A stretch of DNA of 64,000 bases from Candidatus Atabeyarchaeum deiterrae (lineage in GTDB: Archaea > Asgardarchaeota > Atabeyarchaeia > Atabeyarchaeales > Atabeyarchaeaceae). The DNA lies in NCBI GenBank assembly GCA_037310415.1, contig CP147780.1, positions 2,692,680 through 2,756,679 of the forward strand, in the 5' to 3' direction. Positions 49,100 through 49,369 of this stretch are shown piece after piece (within the stretch, counting starts at the first letter, position 1; every line of letters begins with the position of its first letter). The position numbers were made by a program, and so were the translations under genes. The notes under the pieces were generated by a model that saw nothing but the letters and a program-made list of their open reading frames with translations, had not been told where the DNA came from and did no database searches.

Positions 49100-49113
49100 G
49101 AAAAACGGAAAAG
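49100..49113 (-). terminator. oligo-T terminator after tRNA-Tyr
   Basis: Minus strand reads CTTTTCCGTTTTTC just after the encoded CCA. Confidence 0.5.
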
Positions 49114-49115
49114 GG

Positions 49116-49319
49116 TGGTCCCGGCGGCAGGAGCCTCACCGATGGCGTTGGCGTCATCGGACTTGAACCTGCGACCAGACGGTGTCTGAACAGGGGCTAA
49201 CGTACTCAAACGTCTTGCAAGGTACATCGAAGACTCATTTGTACCCTACTACAGCCGCCCGCTCTAGAGTGCAGACTAAGCTGAGTTTCCAGCTCGCTGA
49301 ACCACTGAGCTACGCCGGG
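49116..49319 (-). tRNA. tRNA-Tyr(GTA) with three introns (20/21: 49266-49300; 37/38: 49184-49248; 59/60: 49133-49161), CCA encoded
   Basis: The spliced product CCCGGCG TA GCTC AGTGGTA GAGC G GGCGG CTGTAGA CCGTC TGGTC GCAGG TTCAAGT CCTGC CGCCGGG A CCA is a 75-nt cloverleaf with C1:G72 and A73. Introns 1 and 3 are bounded by exact BHB motifs. Confidence 0.93.
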
Positions 49320-49353
49320 ACAATGCAAGCAAATTAGAAATTCACTCGTGAGT

Positions 49354-49369
49354 TTATTAAAGATTTTGG
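49354..49369 (-). promoter_or_regulatory. BRE/TATA-like promoter of tRNA-Tyr
   Basis: Minus strand CCAAAATC-TTTAATAA about 35 nt upstream of C1. Confidence 0.5.

Follow-up and report, generated by a model that had tools for sequence, protein, structure and literature searches.

The minus strand of the window, that is, of the whole 64-kb stretch of DNA analysed (G000:C1:2692680-2756679, the final part of a single 2,756,679-bp contig), carries at 49116-49319 a tRNA-Tyr(GUA) gene that starts with CCCGGCG and ends with CGCCGGG-A-CCA. Four exons alternate with three introns located in three different arms, an architecture that a preliminary description of this DNA had proposed and that is upheld here by the joined product, the splice motifs and the relatives of the gene. 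The features are listed below from 5' to 3'; h, H and h' denote the outer, central and inner helix, and a hyphen within a bulge marks the cut.

49353..49369, minus strand: likely archaeal promoter, the BRE/TATA-like element CCAAAAnCTTTAATA, 34-50 nt upstream of the mature 5' end
49116..49319 (G000:C1:2741795-2741998), minus strand: whole tRNA-Tyr(GUA) gene, 204 nt, CCA encoded
49301..49319, minus strand: exon 1, 19 nt; acceptor 5' strand, U8 A9, D-stem 5' strand, D-loop to position 20
49266..49300, minus strand: intron 1, 35 nt, D-loop 20/21, strict hBHBh'; h GCTC/GAGC (the D-stem), H AGTG/CACT, bulges GT-T and CT-A, h' of 3 bp
49249..49265, minus strand: exon 2, 17 nt; A21, D-stem 3' strand, G26, anticodon stem 5' strand, C32 U33 G34 U35 A36 G37
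49184..49248, minus strand: intron 2, 65 nt, anticodon loop, canonical position 37/38, relaxed BHB; h is the anticodon stem, H CTGT/TCAG, 3' cut in the 3-nt bulge AC-A
49162..49183, minus strand: exon 3, 22 nt; A38, anticodon stem 3' strand, variable loop UGGUC, T-stem 5' strand, T-loop to position 59
49133..49161, minus strand: intron 3, 29 nt, T-loop 59/60, strict hBHBh'; h GCAGG/CCTGC (the T-stem), H TTCA/TGAG (one G-U), bulges AG-T and GC-T, h' CCGATG/CATCGG of 6 bp
49116..49132, minus strand: exon 4, 17 nt; U60, T-stem 3' strand, acceptor 3' strand, A73, CCA
49101..49112, minus strand: two T-runs directly after CCA

Removal of the three segments joins exons of 19, 17, 22 and 17 nt into a 75-nt product, which ARAGORN reads as tRNA-Tyr(gta), its cloverleaf being normal. 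This 75-mer contains the C1:G72 pair, the discriminator A73 and the encoded CCA, and the combination of C1:G72 with A73 is the identity set of archaeal and eukaryal TyrRS. Its D-loop comprises 7 nt with G18 G19 and A21, its anticodon loop is CU-GUA-GA, its variable loop measures 5 nt and its T-loop is UUCAAGU. The tertiary positions are complete (U8, A14, G18 G19, A21, U33, U54 U55 C56, A58), and the pairs G53:C61 and G15:C48 (the 15:48 pair) are both present. The earlier derivation of a 75-nt tRNA-Tyr from the 204-nt locus by taking out 35, 65 and 29 nt, with the same identity elements, is therefore borne out by the joined sequence, and the positions 20/21, 37/38 and 59/60 given for the introns are correct when taken as Sprinzl numbers. 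We rejected the same figures as linear indices, which yield a poorer cloverleaf with U at 21 and 38.

Following the archaeal BHB rule, we placed the splice cuts between the second and third bases of the 3-nt bulges. When the 204 nt were scanned blindly for strict motifs (h of at least 3 bp, H of 4 bp, h' of at least 3 bp), two sites emerged, exactly those of introns 1 and 3: both show a 4-bp H, two 3-nt bulges on opposite strands, and helices h and h'. [quoted passage not shown] Its central helix consists of C-G, U-A and G-C pairs plus a U35-U mismatch, and two unpaired bases shift its inner helix, so that the 5' cut falls within a small internal loop. These results agree with the preliminary description, which had given introns 1 and 3 as BHBs with the central helices listed above and intron 2 as relaxed.

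Strict BHB motifs occur in the window at about 6 per kb per strand by chance; the motif alone is thus weak and not significant, and we rejected it as stand-alone proof. What lifts the locus above chance is that the boundaries fit the restoration of a tRNA, that conservation is specific to the exons and that a relative exists without intron 1.

The minimum-energy fold predicted for the whole precursor (-84.8 kcal/mol) lacks the intron 2 BHB, the 5' strand of the anticodon stem pairing with a C-rich block of intron 2. When the fold is constrained, the cloverleaf can form together with the three BHBs at -71.6 kcal/mol, 13 kcal/mol less stable than the minimum. In these models the competing minimum-energy fold is the main structural caveat, and it is limited to intron 2.

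Detection, copy number and published record

Run on genomic DNA, ARAGORN makes no tRNA call in the 64-kb window, with or without its intron mode, so that the check around the locus yields nothing on the uncut DNA and tRNA-Tyr only on the joined exons. The Rfam search of the genomic DNA finds no family at gathering thresholds and no tRNA around the locus at E values up to 10. The only Rfam rows at the locus, for snoRNA and U6atac, were dismissed as chance-level. Of the three introns, tRNAscan-SE called only two in the published run. The expectation that standard annotation would miss or mis-call such a gene holds for all three programs.

The gene is entry 27 in the tRNA table of the genome labelled 'SRVP_Atabeyarchaeota_2_curated.FINAL', listed as Tyr GTA at 2741998..2741795, which corresponds to window positions 49319..49116 (Valentin-Alvarado et al. 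2024, Nat Commun 15:6384, PMC11291895, Supp. Data 4). The introns called by tRNAscan-SE, 2741863-2741927 and 2741812-2741840, coincide base for base with introns 2 and 3; the D-loop intron was missed by the program, and curation with R2DT brought the total to 3 introns (PMC11291895). The table contains neither coordinates for the D-loop intron nor a BHB description, both of which are supplied here (49266-49300, strict motif). In the same study, one or more introns interrupt 92-95% of the tRNA genes of three genomes, and more than half of the genes carry several, frequently at positions other than the canonical one (PMC11291895). According to a preprint, D-arm insertions in Atabeyarchaeaceae are systematically missed by tRNAscan-SE and appear as enlarged D-loops in its output, and the boundaries of Asgard tRNA introns are those of canonical BHBs, above all in the T-arm, with repeated gains (Goswami et al., bioRxiv 10.64898/2026.10.13.758758). 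The main text of that preprint makes no mention of tRNA-Tyr. The literature thus already covers the gene, the number of its introns and the pattern across the genome, and the locus is known; what we add is where the D-loop intron begins and ends and that its motif is strict, a relative that lacks this intron, a fourth insertion in Atabeyarchaeia-1 and the promoter-like element.

The preliminary description had asked whether an intact tRNA-Tyr exists elsewhere in the genome. None was found by any of four methods, namely whole-genome ARAGORN, the RF00005 model, BLAST of the locus against its own genome and the published tRNAscan-SE list; RF00005 produced 17 matches, all at published genes of non-Tyr identity. 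The genome, previously called Asgard-looking, has its nearest records among the Promethearchaeati / Atabeyarchaeia, and a neighbouring RACo-type protein finds its best relatives in SRVP18_Atabeyarchaeia-1 (69% identity) and the MAG LC30 (72%). Its tRNA genes, as located by ARAGORN and RF00005, have the coordinates given in the published table, which identifies it as the complete genome of the soil Asgard archaeon Atabeyarchaeia-2.

Some further observations concern the tRNA complement as a whole. Genes for tRNA-Asp, tRNA-Cys and tRNA-Ile(GAU) are absent from the published list of 43 tRNAs of this genome (PMC11291895); they are probably even more disrupted and still unannotated. In the 2.76-Mb circle, 40 of the 43 listed genes lie at 35 kb-793 kb and the tRNA-Tyr gene about 15 kb before coordinate 0, so that almost all tRNA genes are contained in one arc of roughly 30% of the chromosome. 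ARAGORN in intron mode mislabels several tRNAs (for example, Trp and SeC at G000:C1 243848-243938 and 246125-246215, against Arg-CCG and Arg-TCG by tRNAscan-SE), and its isotype calls are therefore unreliable in this genome.

Comparison with relatives

Orthologues with an identical exon 1 are found in Atabeyarchaeia-1 (L008), in LC30 (L007) and on the metagenome contigs L051 and L057. We treat the window gene and those of Atabeyarchaeia-1, LC30 and L051 as four close copies, L057 being more distant. Among the close copies, which as close relatives are non-independent samples, exons are 97-99% identical, introns 55-82% (the intron 1 segment, 55-63%) and flanks 49-61% over 80 nt upstream and 60 nt downstream.

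The strict motifs of introns 1 and 3 are conserved in the relatives, and their inner stems vary in sequence while pairing is kept. For intron 1, two copies have the H helix AGTG/CACT and LC30 has AGTG/CGCT; for intron 3, H is TTCA/TGAG or, in LC30, TTCA/TGAA. Judged from these aligned copies, the central helices of both introns change in compensating ways. The U-U mismatch of intron 2 is common to all four close copies.

The contig L051 (1593-1757) holds tRNA-Tyr exons that are one base off those of the window (99%). It retains introns 2 and 3 and lacks the D-loop intron, its D-arm being exactly the joined sequence predicted for our locus; close relatives thus differ in whether they have the 20/21 intron. 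A gap-tolerant alignment of the locus with an intron-free tRNA-Tyr gene (L053) places a 35-nt insertion at the site of intron 1. The same joined D-arm and the anticodon loop CUGUAGA occur in the intron-free genes L053 and L055, and one-intron tRNA-Tyr genes of other Asgard families (L039, L027) share either the joined D-arm or the CUGUAGA loop. Every Asgard tRNA-Tyr examined carries the 37/38 intron, which measures 64-75 nt in the Asgard L027 and L039 and in the metagenomic L056 and L058. The distant metagenomic tRNA-Tyr of L057 (1156-1300), with different anticodon and T stems, is interrupted at the same 20/21, 37/38 and 59/60 by introns of 15, 43 and 12 nt, each with four central BHB pairs, the anticodon one included.

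Two of the relatives show peculiarities of their own. The Atabeyarchaeia-1 orthologue (229 nt) contains a fourth insertion (L008:1472-1500, minus strand). Its 29 nt lie in the region of the variable loop, with TGGT on either side, and are absent from Atabeyarchaeia-2, LC30 and L051. We found no strict BHB for this insertion, and a BLAST search for its donor against three Atabeyarchaeaceae genomes returned only the match to itself; the published table gives 3 introns in total for the Atabeyarchaeia-1 gene (PMC11291895, Supp. Data 4). The LC30 gene has an extra T in the D-stem 3' strand (GTAGC vs GAGC, L007:1559-1564) that would bulge the D-stem of the mature tRNA, and that is possibly an assembly error, since the contig name indicates a coverage of about 5x. 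An alternative cut at 24/25 that would absorb this T was dropped, no BHB being found there on hand reading.

Outside the gene, the CCAAAAnCTTTAATA element is kept in all four close copies, whose 80-nt upstream flanks are otherwise 51-59% alike, and this suggests that it is likely the promoter. The T-runs downstream are also common to the four copies and are likely an oligo-T terminator, oligo-T being where archaeal transcription ends.

The best conserved part outside the exons is the 37/38 intron, with 65-82% identity among these non-independent copies vs about 50-60% for the flanks. It includes the following structure.

49217..49249, minus strand: hairpin in the 5' part of intron 2, stem of 9-10 bp, kink-turn/K-loop-like loop (AAU-GA-N6-GA)

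The stem of this hairpin covaries in LC30 and Atabeyarchaeia-1, and three of the four close copies have the kink-turn-like form (AAU-GA...GA). In L051 the first GA is replaced by AA, which makes the kink-turn reading weak. No C or D box pair was found in intron 2, the K-loop pattern is not enriched in the 43 tRNA genes of the genome (6 observed vs 4.2 expected), and our literature search found no paper on kink-turns in tRNA introns other than box C/D introns. The intron also has a GUUAGCC-like block able to pair with the anticodon-loop side (GGCUG). It is an unlikely idea that the 37/38 intron of tRNA-Tyr may act before its excision, either by recruiting L7Ae or by shaping the anticodon loop for an intron-dependent modification. 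In eukaryotes, the intron of pre-tRNA-Tyr holds the anticodon loop for pseudouridine 35.

Splicing enzymes and interpretation of the locus

The genome encodes the following candidates for splicing and ligation.

G000:C1:215530-216246: catalytic EndA alpha, 238 aa
G000:C1:625319-625915: His-less EndA beta, 198 aa
G000:C1:982706-984013: RtcB, one gene

Exactly two proteins of the genome match the EndA family (PF01974), both with N- and C-terminal domains. The 238-aa protein is closest to the catalytic alpha chain of Aeropyrum pernix (E 1.9e-46) and keeps Tyr, His and Lys of the active site, its catalytic His aligning with the residue mutated to Ala in 3AJV. The alignment is free of gaps over A. 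pernix residues 34-58, the Crenarchaea-specific loop, and the loop Lys (A. pernix residue 44) is conserved at the sequence level (IRKPK here, VEKPR in A. pernix). In the 198-aa protein Thr replaces the catalytic His of M. jannaschii EndA; this protein matches M. jannaschii EndA and the fusion entry 5X89, which we take to be from M. kandleri, better than crenarchaeal beta chains.

Compared in sequence with the (alpha-beta)2 endonuclease of A. pernix (PDB 3P1Z, 3AJV), the alpha protein shares the active site and the loop Lys; the beta protein differs in being a full two-domain protein, and the alpha protein in having about 60 extra N-terminal residues. One catalytic and one His-less paralogue with the Crenarchaea-specific loop Lys kept in the former is the predicted (alpha-beta)2 layout. 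The preliminary description had held that the locus constrains the EndA type of the genome, which is upheld here, and had proposed the classification that leads to this result. Two EndA paralogues consistent with (alpha-beta)2 are reported for 44 of 60 genomes in the preprint (bioRxiv 10.64898/2026.10.13.758758).

The mechanism that we propose for the locus is the standard archaeal one. Transcription from the conserved BRE/TATA-like element would give a precursor that comprises roughly 204 nt and, in addition, a leader and a trailer, and in which the D-, anticodon and T-stems would each extend into a 4-bp helix flanked by 3-nt bulges. The alpha and beta EndA proteins would excise the introns, and RtcB would join the four exons into the 75-nt tRNA with C1:G72 and A73. 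The anatomy of the sequence, its motifs, the pattern among relatives and the enzyme genes are observed; that the gene is transcribed, cut at precisely these bonds and ligated, and in which order the introns leave, is what we infer. Contigs from four metatranscriptome runs of the same studies gave no match to this stretch, a result that has no bearing on expression.

We weighed this pathway against a tRNA from which only the two tRNAscan-SE introns are removed, the 35-nt segment staying as an enlarged D-loop. Such a product corresponds to the 'mature' sequence in which tRNAscan-SE leaves the segment, and the preprint notes stretches of this kind in the output of the program (bioRxiv 10.64898/2026.10.13.758758). 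However, the segment sits in a strict BHB whose outer helix is the 4-bp D-stem, its excision restores a normal 7-nt D-loop with A21, and the joined form is read directly in L051 and in intron-free tRNA-Tyr genes. The segment also differs between the related copies to an extent that the exons do not (55-63% vs 97-99% conserved), and we consider its retention very unlikely.

The locus could also be a decaying pseudogene, tyrosine being decoded by another, undetected tRNA-Tyr. The essential isoacceptors Asp, Cys and Ile-GAU that are missing from the published list imply that hidden tRNA genes do exist in this genome, conceivably with a second tRNA-Tyr among them, but none of the four methods found one, while the exons of our locus are under strong purifying selection across at least 4 assemblies, the promoter-like motif upstream is conserved and the identity and tertiary positions are all intact. 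Decay of the gene is thus no more credible than retention of the D-loop segment. Still less probable, to the point of being negligible, is that the insertions are assembly artefacts, a concern that arises because the genome derives from a metagenome and that the preliminary description had itself raised as mis-assembly. The architecture is shared by three other independent assemblies and by a more distant one, and the genome is curated and circular, with a topology validated by Nanopore and PacBio reads (PMC11291895). We are confident that the locus is very probably the single, functional tRNA-Tyr(GUA) gene of Atabeyarchaeia-2.

Related systems are known in other lineages. In the Thermoproteales, a single tRNA gene may hold as many as three BHB introns or more at non-canonical positions, and the EndA is a two-subunit enzyme with broad specificity. 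The Atabeyarchaeia-2 gene resembles these in its BHB introns at non-canonical positions and differs in belonging to another phylum. Multi-intron tRNA genes of the Thermoproteales were reportedly the subject of work by Sugahara et al. in 2008, which PMC11291895 cites. The tRNA-Tyr(GUA) of eukaryotes has an intron at 37/38, as do the Asgard copies described here. Eukaryotic tRNAs contain a single intron, and their endonuclease measures the distance from the mature domain; we know of no eukaryotic counterpart to the introns at 20/21 and 59/60. The Asgard pattern is described in the preprint as of independent origin and heavier than that of the Thermoproteales, with 2.2 vs 1.54 introns per gene (bioRxiv 10.64898/2026.10.13.758758).

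As a practical reminder, genes of this kind return nothing in ARAGORN and Rfam. Heavily interrupted tRNA genes in Asgard archaea bear on the spread of splicing-endonuclease introns and on the substrate range of the enzyme, a point made in 2024 for this same genome (PMC11291895) and extended in 2026 in the preprint (bioRxiv 10.64898/2026.10.13.758758). The tRNA-Tyr locus offers a worked example of this, and no new phenomenon: an essential single-copy tRNA that would need three excisions.
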